From Saprospira grandis str. Lewin (GTDB lineage: Bacteria; Bacteroidota; Bacteroidia; Chitinophagales; Saprospiraceae), in NCBI RefSeq assembly GCF_000250635.1, contig NC_016940.1, positions 1,032,995-1,096,994 of the forward strand: a stretch of 64,000 bases of DNA, given 5' to 3'. Positions 11,410 to 21,370 of the stretch are shown here, piece after piece. Made by a program: the position numbers and the translations under genes. The first letter of the stretch is position 1, and the number at the start of each line of letters is the position of its first letter. The notes beneath the pieces are model-generated. The model saw only the letters and a list, made by a program, of their open reading frames with translations. It ran no database searches and was not told where the DNA came from.

Positions 11410-12144
11410 ATGAGTATGAAAAATGAAGATATAGAACTCGAACAGGAGGTCCTTCAAGCAGAATATATGCAGGCTCAGCAACCTGCGCTTTTGGTCCTTT
11501 TGGCCCAGGCTCTTTCAGTGGTCTTCCACCCTTTTCTGATTTTGCTCTACGCCTTTGTCCTTTTGGCCTATTGCAATCCCTTTTTGTTTCGGGTGAGTAG
11601 CTTTGCCGCCGTTTTCGAGAATAAGGTCAATAGTATGCTCTTTATTTGGCTGGCCATTTTCTCTTTTGCGGTCCCTCTGCTCACGGTCCTCATGATGCGA
11701 GCCCTCAATTTTGTCTCTTCTCTACAGATGCCTGGCCGCATGGAACGCATTGGGCCCTATATCGTGGTGGGCCTTTTATATATGGTCATTTTTGTCAATT
11801 TTAAAAATAATCCCGGCGTCCCTCTAGAACTAACGGCCTTTGCCCTAGGCAGTACCATTGCGCTGTTCATCTCTTTTTTCTTCAATCTATTTAGCAAAAT
11901 TAGTGTGCATACTACGGGCATGGGCGGCCTAGTGGCCATGACCCTACTTGCCGTGAGCAGAAGCTATGATGGCCAGGGCTACTTGTTAGTTTGGGTGGTT
12001 TTACTGGCTGGTCTGGTGGGTACGGCCCGTCTGCTCCTCGGCGCCCATAAAACCAAGGAGGTTTATGGCGGCTATGCCTCTGGCTTTATGGGCCAAATGA
12101 TCGCCTTTAATTATTTGTTTGCCACTGCTGCCGAACAGATGTAG
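11410..12144 (+). CDS. PAP2-family membrane phosphatase-like protein
   Basis: Multi-TM protein. SVHTTG resembles the PSGH motif; TARLLLGAHKTKE fits the RX5HX3[DE] PAP2 motif 3. Confidence 0.4.
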   Translation: MSMKNEDIELEQEVLQAEYMQAQQPALLVLLAQALSVVFHPFLILLYAFVLLAYCNPFLFRVSSFAAVFENKVNSMLFIWLAIFSFAVPLLTVLMMRALNFVSSLQMPGRMERIGPYIVVGLLYMVIFVNFKNNPGVPLELTAFALGSTIALFISFFFNLFSKISVHTTGMGGLVAMTLLAVSRSYDGQGYLLVWVVLLAGLVGTARLLLGAHKTKEVYGGYASGFMGQMIAFNYLFATAAEQM

Positions 12145-12159
12145 AGGGGAGCTCTGCTG

Positions 12160-12300
12160 TTTTGGGGCCTCCTGCCTACGGCAGGCGCTACGTTTCGCAG
12201 CTCGCAGGTCTGCTCGGCCCTTCGGCGCAAAGCGCCTCGGTCTGGCCTTCGGCCACTGCTACACATCGCTAGGCCAGTCCTCCCTTCGGTCGTCCTCTAG
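12160..12300. repeat. GC-rich REP-like element
   Basis: cgcagctcgcaggtctgctcggccc core. Confidence 0.75.
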
Positions 12301-12384
12301 CGCCCTAAACAAGCTGTACTTTTGGACCAACAAAAAGCCCCCGCAGTCTCTGACTGCGGGGGCTTCCTTTTTGCCTCGGCTAAT

Positions 12385-13959
12385 TTACCAAAGGCTCCAC
12401 CATTGCTCCTCATCCTTTTGCTGAGGATCTACAGGGGTTAAGCTTTCTGCCAAACCAGAGCTGCCAAAATCTACGGCATTTGCTTCTATTGTGGCTTGTT
12501 GTTTTTGGGCCTCATAAGCATATTTTTTGCGGCTAGGATTGGCAAAATAGGCCTTCCAGGCTTGCTTGTTTTCTTCCTTGGCCAAAATGCGATCTACTTG
12601 CTCACAGAGCGCTTGGCCCTTCTCGGCCTGTACCATACGAACATAGTTCGCAAAGCCCTTAATGCTGGCCAAAATAAATCCTTGGCCCCATTCTGCGGCT
12701 TGATAACCTTTAGTTTCTATGGTATGCAAACAAGCTCTAAATTTCTTCAATGTTTTGCGGTCTACAGCCACTTGCTCATTTACCGTAAGGCCCGTTACCT
12801 CTTGGCGGCGGCCCTTGCGCATAATTTTGAGCTTTTTGGGGTGAATCACAAAGCCTTCATCTTGAATAATCTGCTGGGCCTGCCAAATGATACGGCTAAT
12901 ATTGCTCGTATCATTAGCCGAAAAACTCAGGTCATCGGCATAGCGGCTATAGGTCCAACCTAACTTTTTGGCTACCCCCTCAAAACGGCGGTCCATGCGG
13001 CGGCAAAGCCAGTTGGTAATCGCTGGACTAGTAGGTGCGCCCTGTGGCAAATAGCGCTCTCCCTTTTGGGCATAATACAACTGCCCGTCAATTTCTACTT
13101 GGTCCACCTCTGGTTCTGTCGTCAATAAGGCAAAGATAATGGACTGCTGCTCAGAATAGCCCAAGCCCTTAAACATCCCCTTCACTCGAGGATAGGTTAC
13201 GGTAGGAAAAAAGTCTTTGAGGTCCATATTGATGACCAGCTCTTTTTTCTCATGCAGTTTAGCATTACTCACAATAGAGCGCTCTGGCACAAAGCCATGA
13301 GCCGCTTCATGCATCTCTAAGCGAGCAAGTACATTCTCTAAGAGCCAGTATTGGGCATTTTTAAGCATAGGACGAGGGGCCGAAATCAGGCGTTTTCCTC
13401 CTGTTTTCTTGGCCAAATAAAAGCGCTCATAATGCGATACCGTAGAGAGCTTCCGCTGAAAACAAAGATAGCGCAAACGGCCTACAGAAATATCCATAGC
13501 CTCTGCCAGCTCTTTAATATCTTTAAATGCAGGCAGATTTAAAGCCGCTAATTTTGCTAGGTCAGCTTCTTCTTCACTCAAGCCAGCAGAATAGTCTTTA
13601 CCTAAAAAGACAATACTCCGTTCTTTCTTTTCTTGCCAAGCCTTAGCGCGGGCTTCTTTCTCTGCCTTACGGCGCTCCTTGGTCTCCTCTCGGCGAGCCA
13701 AGGCATCCGCCATGCGTTTTTTACGCATTTCGGCCAGCATACGCTCCTTATCTCGGAACATGCGTTGCTTCTCCATCAGCTCACGCAGCTCTCTTCGGAG
13801 AGCGCCCTTCTTTTGGATAAGCTCCTCAGAGATTTTTGGAGCCTCTTCAGTGGTATCCCAAAAGCCGAGGCGTTTCATTTCTTCTAAGATATATTCCTCT
13901 TTAGAAGTTTGGCGGATACGGTCATAAATCTGTTGGCGGGTCATTCGATGATCAGACAT
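12385..13959 (-). CDS. retron-type reverse transcriptase with an N-terminal charged coiled-coil extension of about 170 aa
   Basis: QGAPTSP (RT motif 4), YADDL (motif 5), the retron-specific NAKLH (NAxxH) and EVTGLTVN (VTG) motifs, plus the RT N-terminal KKTGGKRLISAPRPMLKNAQ. Start is placed at MSDHRM. The alternative upstream ATG at 14049 would put a 15-bp hairpin and the a2 repeat inside the ORF. Confidence 0.8.
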   Translation of the reverse strand: MSDHRMTRQQIYDRIRQTSKEEYILEEMKRLGFWDTTEEAPKISEELIQKKGALRRELRELMEKQRMFRDKERMLAEMRKKRMADALARREETKERRKAEKEARAKAWQEKKERSIVFLGKDYSAGLSEEEADLAKLAALNLPAFKDIKELAEAMDISVGRLRYLCFQRKLSTVSHYERFYLAKKTGGKRLISAPRPMLKNAQYWLLENVLARLEMHEAAHGFVPERSIVSNAKLHEKKELVINMDLKDFFPTVTYPRVKGMFKGLGYSEQQSIIFALLTTEPEVDQVEIDGQLYYAQKGERYLPQGAPTSPAITNWLCRRMDRRFEGVAKKLGWTYSRYADDLSFSANDTSNISRIIWQAQQIIQDEGFVIHPKKLKIMRKGRRQEVTGLTVNEQVAVDRKTLKKFRACLHTIETKGYQAAEWGQGFILASIKGFANYVRMVQAEKGQALCEQVDRILAKEENKQAWKAYFANPSRKKYAYEAQKQQATIEANAVDFGSSGLAESLTPVDPQQKDEEQWWSLW

Positions 13960-14051
13960 AGGGAGCAGATTGAGACAAAAAAAAACTACTTTCAATTTGG
14001 GAGAGCTAAGGCCGAAGCCTAGCTGGTCCAAAATTGAAAGTAGCTGCAAAA

Positions 14052-14309
14052 GAAAAAAAGAAGGAGAGAAGATTTACTTCGTACAATCTTAGAACTAAGA
14101 GAATCAACTCCAGCGAACCGTGGTAGGTGCCCCTACTTGTTCCCCTACAGAGTCTACGACTCGAAACCGCGTAGGGGAACAAGTAGGGGCACCTACCACG
14201 GTTCGCATCATAAAGATTCTTCCTTAGTGAACAGTGAAGAGTAATATCGCTTGAACGCCGAAACAGCGCTCTTTTTGCAAGACTTTGTCTTCTCTTGATC
14301 CTTCTTTTC
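14052..14309 (-). ncRNA. candidate retron msr-msd non-coding RNA
   Basis: Perfect 35-bp inverted repeat 14114..14148 / 14171..14205 around a 22-nt loop gives an msd-like long stem. It is flanked by imperfect inverted repeats at 14287..14309 (gtcttctcttgatccttcttttc, a1-like) and 14052..14074 (gaaaaaaagaaggagagaagatt, a2-like). It lies immediately 5' of the RT on the same strand. Confidence 0.5.
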
Positions 14310-14352
14310 AATATCTATATAGAGATGCTTGTCATCCCCATTTGTCTGTTAC

Positions 14353-14381
14353 AATGATAGATATTCTTTAGCAGCTTGTCA
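14353..14381 (-). promoter_or_regulatory. putative sigma70-like promoter for the msr-msd-RT transcript
   Basis: The minus strand reads TTGACA-17 nt-TATCAT within an AT-rich tract about 40 nt upstream of the a1 repeat. Confidence 0.3.
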
Positions 14382-14447
14382 AGTTTTTATTTAAATTTTT
14401 TCAAAAAATTATCAAAATAGTGAAGCTTTGGTCCTTTTTACGGTAAA

Positions 14448-14586
14448 CAGGCGGCGAAGCCGCCGCAGGCCTAGCGATGTGTAAGGGGGCGGCGAAGCCG
14501 CAGACCAAGGCCATCAGGCCGCAGGGCCGAGCGAATAGCGAGCCCTGAAACGTAGCGCCTGCCGAAGGCAGGAGGCCCCAAAAAAA
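14448..14586. repeat. GC-rich REP-like element
   Basis: Contains ggcggcgaagccgccgcagg, gggccgagcgaatagcgagccc and gaggccccaaaaaaa. Confidence 0.75.
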
Positions 14587-14589
14587 TCG

Positions 14590-16257
14590 CTAGATCAGTT
14601 TTCCAGTTTTGCGATTGTGAGCCATACGGGTGGCTAGAATATGTTCGCAGGGGCCTTTGCGCAATTTATTCATCTGAAAATGATTGCAATTGCATTCGGC
14701 TTGAACCATGCGGTCATCGGCATCGATGAGGAGTTGGCATTGGTAATTGCGCTGTTGTCCTTTGATCTGTGCCGATAGTCGAGTTTGGCCATTTTGCTGC
14801 GACTCTGCCGATAAATTGCTGAGGCGGTTTTGGTCCAAAATCTTGTTGGCTTTTTCTTCTTGTGGCGAGGCAAAGCGGAGCAACTTCATATCGAGTGGTT
14901 CGCGATGCAATTCCCGCAGGCGATACACGCCCAAGGTAGGATCAAAAATCACTCGGCCCGCTTGGGTGTAAGCTTGCAAGGAAGCGCTGACGATATCTCT
15001 GCCTAACTCTAGGCGTTCTGCTAGGCTATCTACCGACTCGAAATAAGTGCTTTTGAGGGCATCAAAAACGGTTTGTTTGGTCCAATCATCTACCTCTAAG
15101 CGAGGGGCGAGCAAATCAAAGTTACCAGCTCTGGACCAATCGTTATCGGTCCAGCCAGAAAGGCCCAAAGTAAAGACCATATCTCCCTCTAGTTGGGCCT
15201 CATAGAAAGAAGGCAAACCAGAACCGAGGAAGCTGACTGTAAATTTTTTGGCTTGTGGAATCAGGCGCTCTAAAATGAGTAAGCGGCGGCGGCCCCAAAT
15301 GCGGACCTCCTCTGCTTTTGGCCCATGATAAATAGAGCGGCGGCAGATAATTTCTTTATTCCAAGGTTCTACCACCACCTTAACGGGCTGCCCAGGGCGA
15401 AGTTGAAAGCGCAAAGAGCGGGGGCCATGTGTTTCCTTAAAGCGGCGCAAAAGCTGGCAGATGCTATGAATATCCATGGGATGCAGGTCAAAGCGAATGA
15501 GCGGCATCGTCATGGCAGAGCTCACTTGAAGGAAGCCGCGGACCCAGCTTTCGGGTAGGTCAATTTTGACCTCCTTATATAAATCTTGGTCCTCCGTTTG
15601 GATTTCGAAGCCAGAAGGATCTACCCGAAAATCGGTTTCCTTATAATTCCGAATCTTTTGAAACTCATTATAAAGGGCTGCGGAGTAATCAATATTGGTT
15701 GTTCCGCAAGAAAACTCATCAATATTCTTAAAGACATTATAGCCACAGCTGAGCTTACCATAGGTAGATTCATCTTGGCTAAAGCACTCAAAGAAAATGC
15801 TATCGGGATGAGTAGTGATAACGGGATCCAGGACGATCCAGGCATCAAAATCCTTTTTATAGAGGTAATTAAAATACTCTCTTTGTTTTTTGTAGAAATG
15901 CTGCATTACGCCTCGTTCCTGCTCTTCTACCCCAGCCAATTCTACCGAAATATCTTCGATACGTTGTTTAATATTGGCCTCATCTCCAGCAATTTCGCCA
16001 AGGTATTGGGCCAGCCAGACCTCTTCCTGCTCCTTGGCCCAGGCCAAATAGGCAGATTTATCACGAGGTTTGAAGCGAAGATCAGAAACCACTACGGCAT
16101 TCAAGGCAGAGATGGCTTCTCTAAAGGCAATTTTCTTATGCAATTGGCCCACAAAAAAAGTAGGCTCGCGCAAACTATCGGGGGCAAAGGACATGGCCGT
16201 TTGCCCAGCTTTATTCTTCACAGAGGAAGTTCCTCCATACTTATAATTAAATAACAT
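14590..16257 (-). CDS. SWIM zinc-finger family protein
   Basis: C-terminal CxC-x11-CxH signature AECNCNHFQMNKLRKGPCEHILA; 555 aa. Confidence 0.65.
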   Translation of the reverse strand: MLFNYKYGGTSSVKNKAGQTAMSFAPDSLREPTFFVGQLHKKIAFREAISALNAVVVSDLRFKPRDKSAYLAWAKEQEEVWLAQYLGEIAGDEANIKQRIEDISVELAGVEEQERGVMQHFYKKQREYFNYLYKKDFDAWIVLDPVITTHPDSIFFECFSQDESTYGKLSCGYNVFKNIDEFSCGTTNIDYSAALYNEFQKIRNYKETDFRVDPSGFEIQTEDQDLYKEVKIDLPESWVRGFLQVSSAMTMPLIRFDLHPMDIHSICQLLRRFKETHGPRSLRFQLRPGQPVKVVVEPWNKEIICRRSIYHGPKAEEVRIWGRRRLLILERLIPQAKKFTVSFLGSGLPSFYEAQLEGDMVFTLGLSGWTDNDWSRAGNFDLLAPRLEVDDWTKQTVFDALKSTYFESVDSLAERLELGRDIVSASLQAYTQAGRVIFDPTLGVYRLRELHREPLDMKLLRFASPQEEKANKILDQNRLSNLSAESQQNGQTRLSAQIKGQQRNYQCQLLIDADDRMVQAECNCNHFQMNKLRKGPCEHILATRMAHNRKTGKLI

Positions 16258-16268
16258 ATTGAGCTAGA

Positions 16269-19200
16269 CTAAGATTGAGTGGGATAATCATGAATCGCAA
16301 TAGGCTGTTCGAGCAAGGGGTATTGGTCCTGCAAATCACGTAGTACAATAACGGCCTGCTCCTTATCGCCAATCGCTGCAGTGGCCGAGATAAAAGTGGC
16401 TAAATCAGAGAGGAATTGCGCTACTTCAAAAGAAGCTTTGGCCTCTTTGGTCAAAAAGCTCCAGATGCGATCCTTGGCCATTCGGCCCTTGTTCACTTGG
16501 GCCAAAACGGTATAAAAATAATCGCGTAGCGATAGAATCCGCTCGGGATGTCCAGCCCCAAAGCGCTCCAAATAATTAGTTGCATACAGTTGTAGTTCTG
16601 GACGGGGGTGCTGACTCAATTGCTCCAAGTACATGGGGCCATCCTCTTCCTCAAAGAAGCGAGTAATGAGTTGGCGACCAAACTGCTGTACATCTTGGCG
16701 AACCGAATCGCAGATGCCCACCATCAAACTAGGGTTCCAATCATCAGCGGTATAGCTTTGGCCAAAGAAATCAAAGGCAAATTGTCGAGAATCGGCCCAA
16801 TCTACATCTAGTAGACGCAAAGCCTCTTCTCTTTCGTAGCGCATACGATCTTTTTGTTCCTTAAACATTTTCCAAGCGAGCTCGCGAACGGCCACAATTT
16901 CATGATTGGCCAGACGAACCGTATTGGCCACCGACAAAGAGTCATAAGGGATATAGCGATCAATTAAGACGGCAGCCAACTCTTGTGCGGGAGCATATTT
17001 TGCATTGAGCAGGCGGAAAATAAACTTCCGGTCTACCTCCGCCAAATGGCCCTCTAGTTCGCTAGTTAAGATATCGGCAAAGAGCGCGTGCAAGCCCTCA
17101 ATTTTTTCTTTGCGGATCAGTTTACGCAAGAGCGCTTGCATTTGCGTCACCGCAAAAGCTTGGTTTTGGGCATAGAGTGGGGCCAAAACTTCACGGCTGG
17201 CCAAGCGCACATCCTCTTCAGGATGCTCTAAAAGGCCCAGAAGGAAGTCGCCTTCCTGCAAGAGCTTTTGCTCTGAAGAGTGACGGAGAAGTTCTAAGCC
17301 ATAGCGCCAATAATCGGCTGTTTTGCCAAAGAGGTATTGAATATCTTCAAAGGGAATTTGTGTAGCTTCTGCCGCATGCCCTTTAAGCAAATGCAAACCA
17401 AAGGCTTGTTGCTGAGCCAAAGGCAGGCGTAAAAACTTCCCGATTAAATCTAGGCTGAGTTGTTGGGTTTCCTCGACAAAGTAGCTCTTCAGTAAGGACT
17501 CTACCTCTGTCATTAGCATCTGTTGATCTTGGCCCGAGCGGAGCAAGAAGCCCAGCAAACGGCCCAAGAGTGCTTGACGCTTGGCGGCTTCATAAACCTC
17601 CACGATACGTCCTAAGGCCTCTTGTGCCCAATTTCTCAAATCTTTGCGTTGGTGCAATAAAAGGCTATAGACCAAATCTAGATCGGCAAAGTAGTCAAAG
17701 AAATCAGCTTCTAGCCAAGCCAAAGCCTGCTCTCTAGCCTTTGCATAATCATGGTCCAAAAGGTAAAGCAGGATAGCCGTAGGCTTGCCTGATTTTTCAT
17801 AATTGGCCACAATTTCTTGCAGGGCCCAAGTTTGTAGTGGCTGATATGGACGGCTCAGTAGCTGCTTCCAGTAAGACAAGCCCAGTCGCTTTTGCAAGCT
17901 CTTGGCCTCGGGATGGGCCATAAATGCCGTATGGGCAAACTCTAGGACCTTTTGGCTTTTGGCCTCGGCCATTAGGTGCAAAAAGGCCTTGGGCTCCTGC
18001 CGCCAAAGGTCGGCATATTTAGTTTCTGAAAGGGGGGCTGGCAAGGGCATATCTGGATCGTAATGCTTACCATAAACCCATTCTTGTTTCATGGGAGAAT
18101 ATACATATCGCTGACTATTCGCATAAAGAACCTCGTTAAAGATCAGCTCCTTAGAGTAGCTAGGATAATGATATACGCTGGCGATCCAGCGCTGTTTCTT
18201 ATTATCAAATCGCCAGTTCTTTTCTCGGCGATCTGTGCGGCCATCTCGGCTATCATCATATTGAAGGAGGAGACTTGTGGCCATAGCGACATAAGCGATA
18301 TTTCCCTTTTGTCCCAATTGGTCCAACTCTTTACGCATATAATCGCTAAAGTAGTCCTTGGTCAAATTGGAGAAGGCTAGACGGCTATTTTCTTTTTTCA
18401 ACTCATCTTTGGGCCGCATACGGTTATAGCTAACCCAAACATATTGATTATTTCGGCGGGGCATTCTATACTGTGGGCTCGCTTTTTCAAAGCGGTAGGC
18501 CAAGGCCCCCCAAAACTGTGCATCCTTGCGAAAGGTCGCCATTTTGAAGAGGCGACGCAGCAAACGGAAGCTATTGGGTCGGAACTCCATTTCGCAAATG
18601 ACCTCTACTAATGTCTTGCGACAATAAGGCATAGCAGGAGACAATAAATAAAGCATAGCAAATGCTTGCTCCATACTTTTATCTCCTTTGGCCTTGCGTA
18701 GCTGATAGGCCAAAGCATCATTATCTTTACGGTCCAAGGCCTTTTGCCAGAGTTCAGGGAGTTTGGGCAGCTCCTCTTCGAGCAAAGCCTGTTGCCCAGC
18801 GGCATCGGCTAGTTCCCAATAGACAAAGGGCGCTAGTTTTTTAGCCGTAGGCGCTTTTTTCTTGCTTCGCCAAAAAGTTAATAAGTTGCTGGGGTCCTCT
18901 ACTGCGGTATCGAGTTGAGCCGTAGCCCAAAGTAGGCTATAGAGCTCCATATCGTCTATAGATTTGCCTCTATGGTTTTGCTCAAAAAGGGCCCAGCAAT
19001 AGGGTCCAGCCGCTTTGATGTTAAGACTAGCGGCACGCCAAGCGACCCTAGACAGCTTCCAGTTGCGGGCCTTTTGGGCCGCTGGATCTAGTTGAGCGAG
19101 CTGTAAATGGTATAGGATCCAGGCCGCCTGAGCTTCTGCTCCTTCTAGGGATTTATCTGGGGGCTGAATAGCCGCCACTTGCTTGGCCTGGCTCTTTTCA

Positions 19201-19445
19201 GATACATCCAAATAGCCCTTTTTCATTTTATCCTGTAGCAATTTATTGTACAGACTGCGGGCCTTGGTTTCATCTACAGGCGTGGGCGTTTTGCTGCCCT
19301 CTCTTAAGGGGCCGCCCGTTTTCCCATAACGGAAATTAACTAGAAAGGCCCCTGCTTCCAATTCGCAAAGGTCTACTTCATATACTTTATCAGAATTGCC
19401 CTGCTTAAAATGCAGGCGCTTTTGTTCTATTAGCTTCATCGGCAA
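16269..19445 (-). CDS. large alpha-helical protein with an N-terminal WGR-like domain (MolR/DUF4132-type partner of SWIM proteins)
   Basis: N-terminus KRLHFKQGNSDKVYEVDL..VNFRYGKTGG....LYNKLLQDKMKKGYLD fits the WGR domain pattern. 1058 aa, mostly helical. Only 11 nt separate it from the SWIM gene. Confidence 0.5.
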   Translation of the reverse strand: MPMKLIEQKRLHFKQGNSDKVYEVDLCELEAGAFLVNFRYGKTGGPLREGSKTPTPVDETKARSLYNKLLQDKMKKGYLDVSEKSQAKQVAAIQPPDKSLEGAEAQAAWILYHLQLAQLDPAAQKARNWKLSRVAWRAASLNIKAAGPYCWALFEQNHRGKSIDDMELYSLLWATAQLDTAVEDPSNLLTFWRSKKKAPTAKKLAPFVYWELADAAGQQALLEEELPKLPELWQKALDRKDNDALAYQLRKAKGDKSMEQAFAMLYLLSPAMPYCRKTLVEVICEMEFRPNSFRLLRRLFKMATFRKDAQFWGALAYRFEKASPQYRMPRRNNQYVWVSYNRMRPKDELKKENSRLAFSNLTKDYFSDYMRKELDQLGQKGNIAYVAMATSLLLQYDDSRDGRTDRREKNWRFDNKKQRWIASVYHYPSYSKELIFNEVLYANSQRYVYSPMKQEWVYGKHYDPDMPLPAPLSETKYADLWRQEPKAFLHLMAEAKSQKVLEFAHTAFMAHPEAKSLQKRLGLSYWKQLLSRPYQPLQTWALQEIVANYEKSGKPTAILLYLLDHDYAKAREQALAWLEADFFDYFADLDLVYSLLLHQRKDLRNWAQEALGRIVEVYEAAKRQALLGRLLGFLLRSGQDQQMLMTEVESLLKSYFVEETQQLSLDLIGKFLRLPLAQQQAFGLHLLKGHAAEATQIPFEDIQYLFGKTADYWRYGLELLRHSSEQKLLQEGDFLLGLLEHPEEDVRLASREVLAPLYAQNQAFAVTQMQALLRKLIRKEKIEGLHALFADILTSELEGHLAEVDRKFIFRLLNAKYAPAQELAAVLIDRYIPYDSLSVANTVRLANHEIVAVRELAWKMFKEQKDRMRYEREEALRLLDVDWADSRQFAFDFFGQSYTADDWNPSLMVGICDSVRQDVQQFGRQLITRFFEEEDGPMYLEQLSQHPRPELQLYATNYLERFGAGHPERILSLRDYFYTVLAQVNKGRMAKDRIWSFLTKEAKASFEVAQFLSDLATFISATAAIGDKEQAVIVLRDLQDQYPLLEQPIAIHDYPTQS

Positions 19446-19699: not shown

Positions 19700-20034
19700 C
19701 TCCGGGGATTCCCCAGAGCTGTTTGTAAGCTGCAGCAGCGCCCTAGACGGTTATTTCTCTCTAAAAAAACCGCCAACAGCACCCCTGAGGGATTCCTTAG
19801 GGAATCCCGAGGAGGGGCGGGTGGGCGGGGTCGTGAAAACGAATGAGGAGCGCAGCGACGAATACCGCTTTTCTGCGAAGGCCCGCAGGGCCGCTGAGGG
19901 CCCAGCGCTGCGGAGCGGGTGGCCGAAGGCCAGACCGAAGCAGGCGAAGCCTGCGCAGGGCCGAGCGAGCAGCGAGCCCCGCAGCATAGCGGCGGCCGCC
20001 CGCCCTTTTTGGGGCGGCCGCGGGCCCCAAAAAC
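19700..20034. repeat. GC-rich REP-like element (composite) including the gggattccttagggaatccc palindrome variant
   Basis: Shares cores with the other copies. The same palindrome variant occurs at 56930..56990. Confidence 0.75.
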
Positions 20035-20137
20035 ATAAAAATCAAAATAAACTTTCCTTTAAATCATAACAGAATGCCCGCATCCCTTGGACGATTCTGT
20101 ATCTTAGGAGCTCATTCAGCAAAACAAACCATCGCTT

Positions 20138-21370
20138 ATGCGCCAACTTATTTCATGGGCCTTTATTCTGGCCCTACCGGCTTGTCTTTGGAGCCAAGAC
20201 CTTGGTCAAGAACTGCAAAAACTAGAAGCTCAAAAGCAAAGCCTAGACGAACAAAAAGCCGCCCTTATTGAGCAAATTGAAAACGTCCGCCTACAAAAGA
20301 TTCGAGCTGATTTGAAAAAAGTGGGCTTGCCAAAAAATGGCGTAGCAGGGGAACTGGTAGAGCATGCCGCCATGATTCTGAACTATTCGGAGGCCCATGA
20401 ACAGGCCGCTTGGGTGGCCCATATTATTCCGCCCGCCGTGATGGAAGGCAACCTGAGCCGAACCAATGATTTTAGAGCAGATGAGCTAGTCAGTACAGGA
20501 ACGGCGGTAAAAGCCGACTACTGGTATAGTGGTTACGACCGTGGGCATTTGGCCCCTTCTGCGGATTTCCGCTGGTCCAAAACAGCCATTAGTGAGTCCT
20601 ATTATTACTCTAACATGAGCCCCCAATTGCCCGAATTTAACCGAGAGGGCTGGGCCGATTTGGAGCGATGGGTCCGAGGAGCCGTCTTTTCTCACAAACG
20701 CTCTATGTTGGTCATTACTGGCCCTATTTTGAAAGAGGGCTTGCCCCAAATTACCCAAGGCCCCAATAAAGTAAGCATTCCCGAAGCCTTTTTCAAGGTG
20801 GTTCTGGACCTAGAGGCCGAGCAGCCCAAGGCTATCGGTTTTATCATGAAAAATGGCAGCTGCAACAACCCCACAATCAGCTATGCCGTCTCGGTAGATG
20901 AGGTGGAGGCCCAAACGGGCTTGGATTTCTTTAGCAATTTGCCCGAAGAGGAAGAAAAACGCCTAGAAGCCATGAAGGCCCCTTCTAGCTGGGAGAAAAC
21001 GACGGAAGGTCGCTTGGCCGATGTTCCTCCCCTCAGCAATGAGGAATTGCCCAAGGATTGTATCAGCACCGCCGATGCCCCCGTCTTTATGAACCAAAAA
21101 GCCTGCGTTTGCGGCACAGTGGTATCCACCAAGAAAACCAAGTCGGGCTCTGTCTTTATCAATCTGGACACAAAATTTCCCAACCAGATTTTTTCCGTAA
21201 CCATCTGGGGCAAGGACATCAAGCATTTTTCTTATTCGCCAGAGACGGAACTCTATGGCAAGCAGATTTGTGTAAAGGGGAAAATTACAGATTACAAAGG
21301 GACCCCGACCATGAATATCACTCATGAAAAGAAGGTGGAATTTATGGAGGAGATGCCAGATAAGAAGTAG
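20138..21370 (+). CDS. nucA: secreted DNA/RNA non-specific endonuclease (Serratia NucA/EndoG family) with a C-terminal extension of about 120 aa
   Basis: Signal peptide MRQLISWAFILALPACLWSQ. The GYDRGHLAP DRGH catalytic motif is present, with NxS...N downstream. Confidence 0.75.
   Translation: MRQLISWAFILALPACLWSQDLGQELQKLEAQKQSLDEQKAALIEQIENVRLQKIRADLKKVGLPKNGVAGELVEHAAMILNYSEAHEQAAWVAHIIPPAVMEGNLSRTNDFRADELVSTGTAVKADYWYSGYDRGHLAPSADFRWSKTAISESYYYSNMSPQLPEFNREGWADLERWVRGAVFSHKRSMLVITGPILKEGLPQITQGPNKVSIPEAFFKVVLDLEAEQPKAIGFIMKNGSCNNPTISYAVSVDEVEAQTGLDFFSNLPEEEEKRLEAMKAPSSWEKTTEGRLADVPPLSNEELPKDCISTADAPVFMNQKACVCGTVVSTKKTKSGSVFINLDTKFPNQIFSVTIWGKDIKHFSYSPETELYGKQICVKGKITDYKGTPTMNITHEKKVEFMEEMPDKK

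Follow-up and report, generated by a model that had tools for sequence, protein, structure and literature searches.

Type XIII is an already classified retron type, to which the earliest retrons discovered in myxobacteria belong. Its reverse transcriptases (RTs) belong to clade 10, with Mx162, Mx65, Sa163 and Ne144 as members, and it carries its own dedicated noncoding RNA (ncRNA) structure; its SWIM protein (cluster 114) combines a DEDE motif and a winged helix with the SWIM finger CxCx12CxH at the C-terminus, and a WGR-like protein with HEAT/ARM repeats (cluster 216) is usually encoded upstream of the SWIM gene (Mestre et al. 2020, PMC7736814). In a 2026 survey, type XIII is among the retron types of greatest abundance and broadest distribution. 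Here we analysed a stretch of 64,000 nucleotides of Saprospira grandis str. Lewin (NC_016940.1, positions 1,032,995 to 1,096,994), hereafter the window, whose minus strand holds an RT gene with a long perfect hairpin immediately upstream. Our data indicate that this locus is very probably a complete type XIII retron operon of S. grandis, making a multicopy single-stranded DNA (msDNA). We put the probability of this reading at about 0.9, a figure that refers to the type XIII identity and the production of msDNA, the downstream role lying outside it. No paper describing a Saprospira retron was found in a literature search.

The operon consists of three open reading frames (ORFs) that follow each other on the minus strand in the order 19445-16269 (1058 aa), 16257-14590 (555 aa) and 13959-12385 (524 aa), with a gap of 11 nt between the first gene and the start of the second and of 630 nt between the second and the RT. 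The first ORF opens at TTG 19445, and ATG 19439 is its likely start. The three proteins were assigned to type XIII because PADLOC profiles match them nearly over their full length: the first gene matches WGR_XIII (E=0, protein 3-1056 on profile 1-972 of 973), the middle gene SWIM_XIII (E=2.2e-232, protein 1-550) and the RT RT_XIII (E=8.2e-188, 623 bits, protein 2-489 on profile 8-454 of 469). For the RT the next-best PADLOC profile reached 310 bits, and all 25 listed matches (the best of 61 families) were retron RT profiles; on its RT_XIII score it is predicted to belong to clade 10. Pfam domains found across the three proteins are RVT_1, SWIM and WGR. Among the NCBIfam models, those for retrons rank first on the RT, all of them under their own curated cut-offs, and the models for other RT classes stay far below theirs, with 65 bits against a cut-off of 300 for group_II_RT_mat, 31 against 390 for Drt2 and 19 against 200 for Drt3a. 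The closest solved structures are likewise retron RTs, the best being the Ec86 RT (4.5e-38, query residues 133-420). A standard defence-system annotator would call all three genes retron type XIII. This is a new member of a classified family, and the architecture of the RT itself brings nothing new.

A homology search with the RT gave 4904 proteins at E <= 1e-20, the 100% match being the copy from S. grandis str. Lewin itself. With this copy set aside, the best 120 of the 4904 are 464-616 aa long and 49-62% identical, and one homologue is labelled RT-Ne144 by its source. For a family alignment of 21 sequences, the window RT was combined with 20 homologues, each from a different 90%-identity cluster, the sources named ranging as far apart as Vibrio, Desulfonema and Chitinophaga. 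The retron motifs which a preliminary description of this DNA had pointed out are all present, namely NAKLH (N232, A233, H236), QGAPTSP (306-312), YADDL (340-344) and VTG (388-390), and N232/A233/H236, Q306/G307/P309/S311/P312, Y340-D343 and V388-G390 are invariant in the alignment. The same description had reported an unusual N-terminal extension of about 170 aa and about 120 aa after VTG. Both segments exist, the latter counting 134 aa; the extension measures about 125 aa when the Ec86 RT is the reference (its residue 8 falls on residue 133 of the window RT), or about 183 aa when counted up to the Pfam RVT_1 domain (residues 184-393), and it is not unusual within its family, being kept in 20 of the 20 aligned homologues and covered by the RT_XIII profile. 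No Pfam domain was found in residues 1-183. The N-terminus is conserved from the first residues, with the consensus LTRQQLYDRIRxTSKEEYILxEMKRLGFW followed by the charged stretch. In the AlphaFold2 (AF2) model of the RT (mean predicted local distance difference test score, pLDDT, 80.4), two short helices (8-30) and a single helix of about 70 residues (45-114) precede the RT core, the thumb and a disordered tail; judging by this model, the extension resembles neither an enzyme nor a toxin and has no enzymatic fold. Residues 475-524 (12385-12450, minus strand, for the tail) are a variable, low-complexity and predicted-disordered tail, a type XIII trait, ending throughout this type with an invariant WW followed by an aromatic/hydrophobic dipeptide (WWxxW), here WWSLW.

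The longest ORF of the RT opens at TTG 14049 and encodes 554 aa, and the database copy (P0001, 100% identical) has this same length; an exact-sequence look-up of the 524-aa protein returned no record. We placed the start at ATG 13959 rather than at TTG 14049 because of the N-terminal conservation in the alignment, and the 554-aa version is probably 30 codons too long. Its extra codons (13960-14049, minus strand) overlap a terminator-like hairpin.

Between the SWIM gene and the RT lie the landmarks of a retron ncRNA, whose coordinates are collected in the table below. The hairpin, which had been described as a perfect stem of 35 bp, turned out to be one base pair longer, with the same 22-nt loop; the sequence of its arm is unique in the window (0 matches expected by chance). 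Folding of the ncRNA region and comparison with homologues had also been proposed in the preliminary description. Folding gives -141.2 kcal/mol for the 316-nt RNA (z = -12.8 relative to shuffles); for the predicted DNA of 149 nt the value is -55.6 kcal/mol (z = -15.1), with stems of 36 bp and 12 bp. In the minimum free energy (MFE) fold, 14309-14299 and 14294-14288 pair with 14072-14055 over 18 bp with one 4-nt bulge, in agreement with the a1/a2 repeats of 18 complementary positions of 23 that had been noted.

For comparison, 80 genomic loci encoding relatives were retrieved, L002-L080 among them. The family consensus of the ncRNA used here was derived from 60 loci. In almost every locus the gap between the SWIM gene and the RT has the same layout: a variable a1, CTTGC, an 8-bp hairpin with three nucleotides in its loop, a conserved stretch ...ACGCnTCACTGG...ATCTTTACT, a structured region (mostly of about 121-128 nt), CGAAG and a2. 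All 41 aligned loci have CTTGC unchanged. In the msr hairpin, 99.1% of the cells are paired among 41 distinct sequences, compensatory changes occur in 5 of the 8 pairs, and the covariation score was matched by none of 500 shuffles; when the structure is slid by 1-3 columns, the pairing falls to 31-60%. For a1 and a2, the 35 nt preceding the conserved CTTGC G were scored against the 35 nt that follow CGA, in cognate and in non-cognate combinations. The mean score is 36.7 for cognate and 18.6 for non-cognate pairs (60 loci), and in 57 of the 60 the cognate score lies above 28, the 95th percentile of the non-cognate pairs, the window scoring 31. Since the a1/a2 sequences differ between loci, the cognate pairing amounts to a covariation of the whole duplex, which in most loci ends directly 5' of the G of CTTGC.

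The msd region is found in the same place across about 60 related loci, with a near-constant length and a differing sequence. It spans 145 nt in the window and in its nearest relative, L002, for a family median of 124 nt, and the main msd stems of the family reach 30-48 bp with a median of 30, the helix tracing being broken by branched folds in about a third of the loci. Counted from the conserved G of CTTGC, CGAAG follows at 173-197 nt (60 loci). The distances cluster in three tight groups (173-180, 185-188 and 195-197 nt), with the window in the longest, a pattern suggestive of msDNAs in discrete sizes some 10 nt apart. The signature CTTGC ... 8-bp hairpin ... UCACU ... CGAAG finds the ncRNA in about 60 genomes, and the result is a full ncRNA annotation, from a1 through a2, for a Bacteroidota type XIII retron.

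Table. Features of the retron locus and of its putative control regions in the window (positions counted from the first nucleotide of the window).
Feature	Position	Strand	Description
WGR + HEAT/ARM-repeat gene, cluster 216-like	16269..19439	-	WGR_XIII; Pfam WGR at residues 11-83
SWIM zinc-finger gene, cluster 114-like	14590..16257	-	555 aa; SWIM_XIII
Promoter-like site TTGACA-17-TATCAT	14354..14382	-	11/12 positions match; ~45 nt upstream of a1; consensus match only
a1 inverted repeat	14288..14309	-	GAAAAGAAGGA, UCAA bulge, then GAGAAGA; MFE fold
CUUGC motif	14277..14281	-	invariant; holds G14278, candidate for branching (priming)
msr hairpin	14253..14271	-	GAGCGCUG-UUU-CGGCGUUC, 8 bp, 3-nt loop
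msr 3' to msd boundary motifs	14211..14230	-	UCACU 14230-14226, AUCUUUA 14217-14211; nearly invariant alignment columns
msd template region	14080..14228	-	predicted; holds the 36-bp perfect stem-loop and a 12-bp outer stem
msd hairpin	14113-14206	-	arms 14113-14148 and 14171-14206, 36 nt, 100% complementary, 22-nt loop
ACGAAG motif	14077..14082	-	directly 5' of a2; AAG pairs with CUU beside the candidate branching G
a2 inverted repeat	14055..14072	-	UCUUCUCUCCUUCUUUUU; pairs with a1 in the MFE fold
Terminator-like hairpin	13977..14043	-	~25 bp in all, UUCG cap, then U9; -32.1 kcal/mol, z = -5.6
Retron RT gene	12385..13959	-	524 aa from ATG; PADLOC RT_XIII, Pfam RVT_1, family alignment, AF2 model
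Predicted operon terminator	12335..12365	-	GC-rich hairpin then TTTTTGTT, directly after the RT stop codon; read from sequence

The analysis shows the family membership of the three proteins, a conserved gene order and a conserved, covarying ncRNA in which the canonical retron landmarks, with the branching G as a candidate, all occur in their expected order. On these landmarks and by analogy with characterised retrons, the following route to the msDNA can be proposed. In the transcript a1 would pair with a2, placing the conserved G14278 at the end of the duplex, and the conserved msr hairpin would be recognised by the RT, which would prime from the 2'-OH of G14278. The msd would then be copied from opposite the G of ACG|AAG (14080), through the 36-bp hairpin, and synthesis would halt near UCACU...AUCUUUA, the region where reverse transcription likely stops. 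After RNase H had stripped the template, a branched msDNA with a stem of about 48 bp would remain, linked to some 55-60 nt of msr RNA. With a start opposite 14080 and a stop within 14211-14230, a branched msDNA of about 138-149 nt is predicted, in round figures 140-150 nt, and its predicted 5' end, complementary to 14080, reads 5'-CGTACAATC. More speculatively, the msDNA-RT particle could join the SWIM protein and the WGR/HEAT-ARM protein, with the msDNA duplex as a nucleic-acid ligand or scaffold; the output could be a domesticated role in DNA surveillance or, like that of other retrons, phage defence.

The two accessory genes accompany the RT over a wide taxonomic range. The SWIM gene is found upstream of the RT and on the same strand in 68 of the 80 loci, with the WGR gene before it in nearly all of these, and this synteny spans Bacteroidota, Pseudomonadota, Verrucomicrobiota, Acidobacteriota and others; for most of the remaining 12 loci the upstream sequence is too short to judge. 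Two RT_XIII homologues, L010 and L018, have 8 kb of upstream sequence and neither a SWIM nor a WGR gene in the locus, and in L055 both genes lie downstream of the RT. The order WGR-SWIM-RT is thus not universal.

Across phyla, identity to homologues amounts to 59-75% for SWIM, against 49-59% for the RT and, in the best tblastn segment, 24-45% for WGR. The SWIM protein is the most conserved component, to a degree that is unusual for a defence effector. It carries the Dx7Dx4E...D...E motif (DPVITTHPDSIFFE at residues 144-157) and the finger CxCx12CxH (CNCNHFQMNKLRKGPCEH at residues 522-539). Searched against PDB chains by sequence and by profile, neither SWIM nor WGR gave a meaningful match. The AF2 model of SWIM has a mean pLDDT of 62.7, good for residues 250-555 and poor for 1-245, and when it was searched with Foldseek, all of the top 50 PDB matches were PCNA clamps (E values 8e-7 to 1e-5). 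At the level of the fold the clamp lead is moderately supported by this model. A far more tentative idea, which we consider rather improbable as a whole, is that SWIM combines a PCNA-like double domain with a winged helix and the SWIM finger and, jointly with the WGR/HEAT-ARM protein, would bind or even encircle the msDNA stem (about 48 bp), so that the system would be an msDNA-loaded clamp-like sensor and not a toxin/antitoxin retron. The same region was read as a DEDE, transposase-like motif by Mestre et al. 2020 (PMC7736814). In an incomplete literature search, in which the word SWIM is of little selectivity, we found no paper linking the SWIM protein to a clamp fold. If the clamp reading were true, it would replace the view of a transposase-derived DEDE and suggest that the long msDNA stem is the ligand of SWIM. 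It offers a testable idea on the purpose of this stem and is, in our opinion, the part most worth following.

Several observations weigh against the interpretation of the locus as given above. In the single-sequence MFE fold the candidate G14278 sits in a G-U pair, and the proximal CUU/AAG helix has 3 bp at the window locus, where the branching G and the stop site are placed by position only. No Rfam family matched the ncRNA (11500-15500, E up to 10): the 16 matches include no retron family, and the one on the hairpin is a spurious miRNA, mir-764, seen on both strands. The clamp proposal uses a model with a mean pLDDT of 62.7 in which the first clamp-like domain is poorly predicted. Finally, no experimental paper on type XIII function was found in the literature search, and for this reason the step after msDNA synthesis is conjecture.

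Several other explanations could be issued, of which the most serious accepts the type XIII assignment. The retron could be a vertically inherited, domesticated element acting in cellular DNA metabolism or surveillance and not in phage defence. A correlation of 0.78 (moderate) between type XIII and host 16S has been reported, and vertical inheritance with possible domestication was suggested from it (Mestre et al. 2020, PMC7736814). The high conservation of SWIM across phyla, above that of the RT and WGR, points in the same direction, as do the neighbours, which are ordinary chromosomal genes with no defence island, and the GC content of the operon, equal to that of its flanks; the clamp-like fold, taken from the model, would also suit DNA transactions more than a toxin. 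On the other side, phage defence is the known role of the retrons that have been tested, type XIII stands among the defence systems of PADLOC, and the lack of SWIM and WGR within 8 kb in L010 and L018 is a patchiness more typical of accessory systems. We regard domestication as possible, though less likely than not.

Two further readings deny the type XIII assignment itself. The preliminary description could place the architecture in no known retron type and took it for a potentially novel module, with either the fused extension or the upstream SWIM/WGR genes as the effector. The type XIII profiles matching all three proteins contradict the first statement, and of the two guesses the upstream genes fit, these being the cognate accessory genes of the type. 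It is very improbable that the locus is a new retron type whose RT carries its effector as the charged N-terminal extension: the extension does exist, Pfam is blank over its residues and no effector gene lies downstream of the RT, but it falls inside the RT_XIII profile, is conserved throughout the aligned homologues and models as helices with no enzymatic fold. We give even less credit to the hairpin being an unrelated palindrome (REP-like, a terminator or a transposon end) near a non-retron RT of the group II intron, diversity-generating retroelement (DGR) or Abi/UG/DRT kind. GC-rich intergenic repeats are indeed dispersed in the genome, one of them about 200 nt away, and the sole Rfam match of the hairpin is a spurious miRNA family. 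Yet the arm is unique in the window, the msd is kept in place in about 60 loci, framed by CTTGC, CGAAG and the covarying a1/a2, and the best matches of the RT, a check also proposed at the outset, are all to retrons, with Drt2, Drt3a and group II far under their cut-offs. The candidate retron of the preliminary description is borne out, as a type XIII retron.

The locus also contains putative control elements. The TTGACA-17-TATCAT site that had been noticed upstream of the ncRNA is present, running from 14382 to 14354; it can also be read as TTG-N20-TATCATTG, near to the Bacteroidota consensus, TTG...TAnnTTTG. How much ncRNA is made relative to RT mRNA could be governed by the terminator-like hairpin that lies after a2 and before the RT start. 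In a scan of the family, L002, the nearest relative, was the sole locus flagged for a comparable element, and as a family feature the hairpin was rejected; the scan left the window copy unscored, the first T-run of the window locus lying within a2. The hairpin that directly follows the RT is likely the terminator of the operon, as read from the sequence; its 14-pair palindrome also scored on the plus strand.

The intergenic regions around the operon contain a dispersed GC-rich repeat with the core GCAGGGCCGAGCGAnnAGCGAGCCC, of which the window holds 5 copies, at 14521, 19955, 21417, 46300 and 50731. GC-rich repeat stretches at 14430-14590 and 19700-20050 bracket the WGR-SWIM pair and yield spurious GC-rich ORFs. 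The 14430-14590 repeat was considered as a part of the retron and rejected, the repeat being dispersed with 5 copies in the window and not particular to the retron. Beyond the RT, 12150-12330 is a similarly GC-rich stretch. Divergent from the WGR gene, a gene for a DNA/RNA non-specific endonuclease (Pfam Endonuclease_NS, 6.5e-50) occupies 20138-21370 on the plus strand.

Among the systems to which the locus can be compared, Ec86 (St85 family; structures 7v9u, 7v9x and 8qbk) shares a homologous RT core, over the residues matched by its structure. The 82-nt Ec86 msr matches E. coli DNA at 100%, between an St85-family effector gene and the RT gene. Its terminal hairpin GGAUGUUG-UUU-CGGCAUCC (DNA: GGATGTTG-TTT-CGGCATCC) is identical to the hairpin of the type XIII locus L015. 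In Ec86 the branching G follows directly on the a1/a2 duplex, in the context UUA-G-C, for CUU-G-C around the candidate G in the window. The Ec86 RT differs in having neither the N-terminal extension of about 125 aa nor the C-terminal WWxxW tail, and its system has an extra msr hairpin, an msDNA of 86 nt and a different upstream effector, annotated as St85-family. As for the SWIM protein, its resemblance to the PCNA, 9-1-1 and beta sliding clamps is confined to the fold, with 6-13% sequence identity. It shows no sequence-level match to solved structures and no significant internal repeat of the kind found in clamps (hhalign of residues 138-250 against 251-372, probability 0.8%), and it has extra N-terminal helices, a winged helix and the SWIM finger.

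The closest systems remain the type XIII retrons themselves, represented by Retron-Mxa1/Mx162, Retron-Mxa2/Mx65, Retron-Sau1/Sa163 and Retron-Nex2/Ne144, the likeness being drawn from the profiles and the published description. The window RT matches the same profile, N-terminal extension included, the SWIM protein carries both its characteristic motif and the finger, the WGR/HEAT-ARM gene precedes the SWIM gene, and the ncRNA likewise has a long msd stem. The predicted size of the msDNA falls in the range implied by the names Ne144, Mx162 and Sa163. Unlike the myxobacterial members, the window retron is hosted by one of the Saprospiraceae (Bacteroidota); its msd, with a perfect 36-bp core stem, exceeds that of most of the relatives examined by about 20 nt (145 vs ~124 nt), and it has the terminator-like hairpin and U9 between a2 and the start of the RT, matched only by L002 in the family scan.

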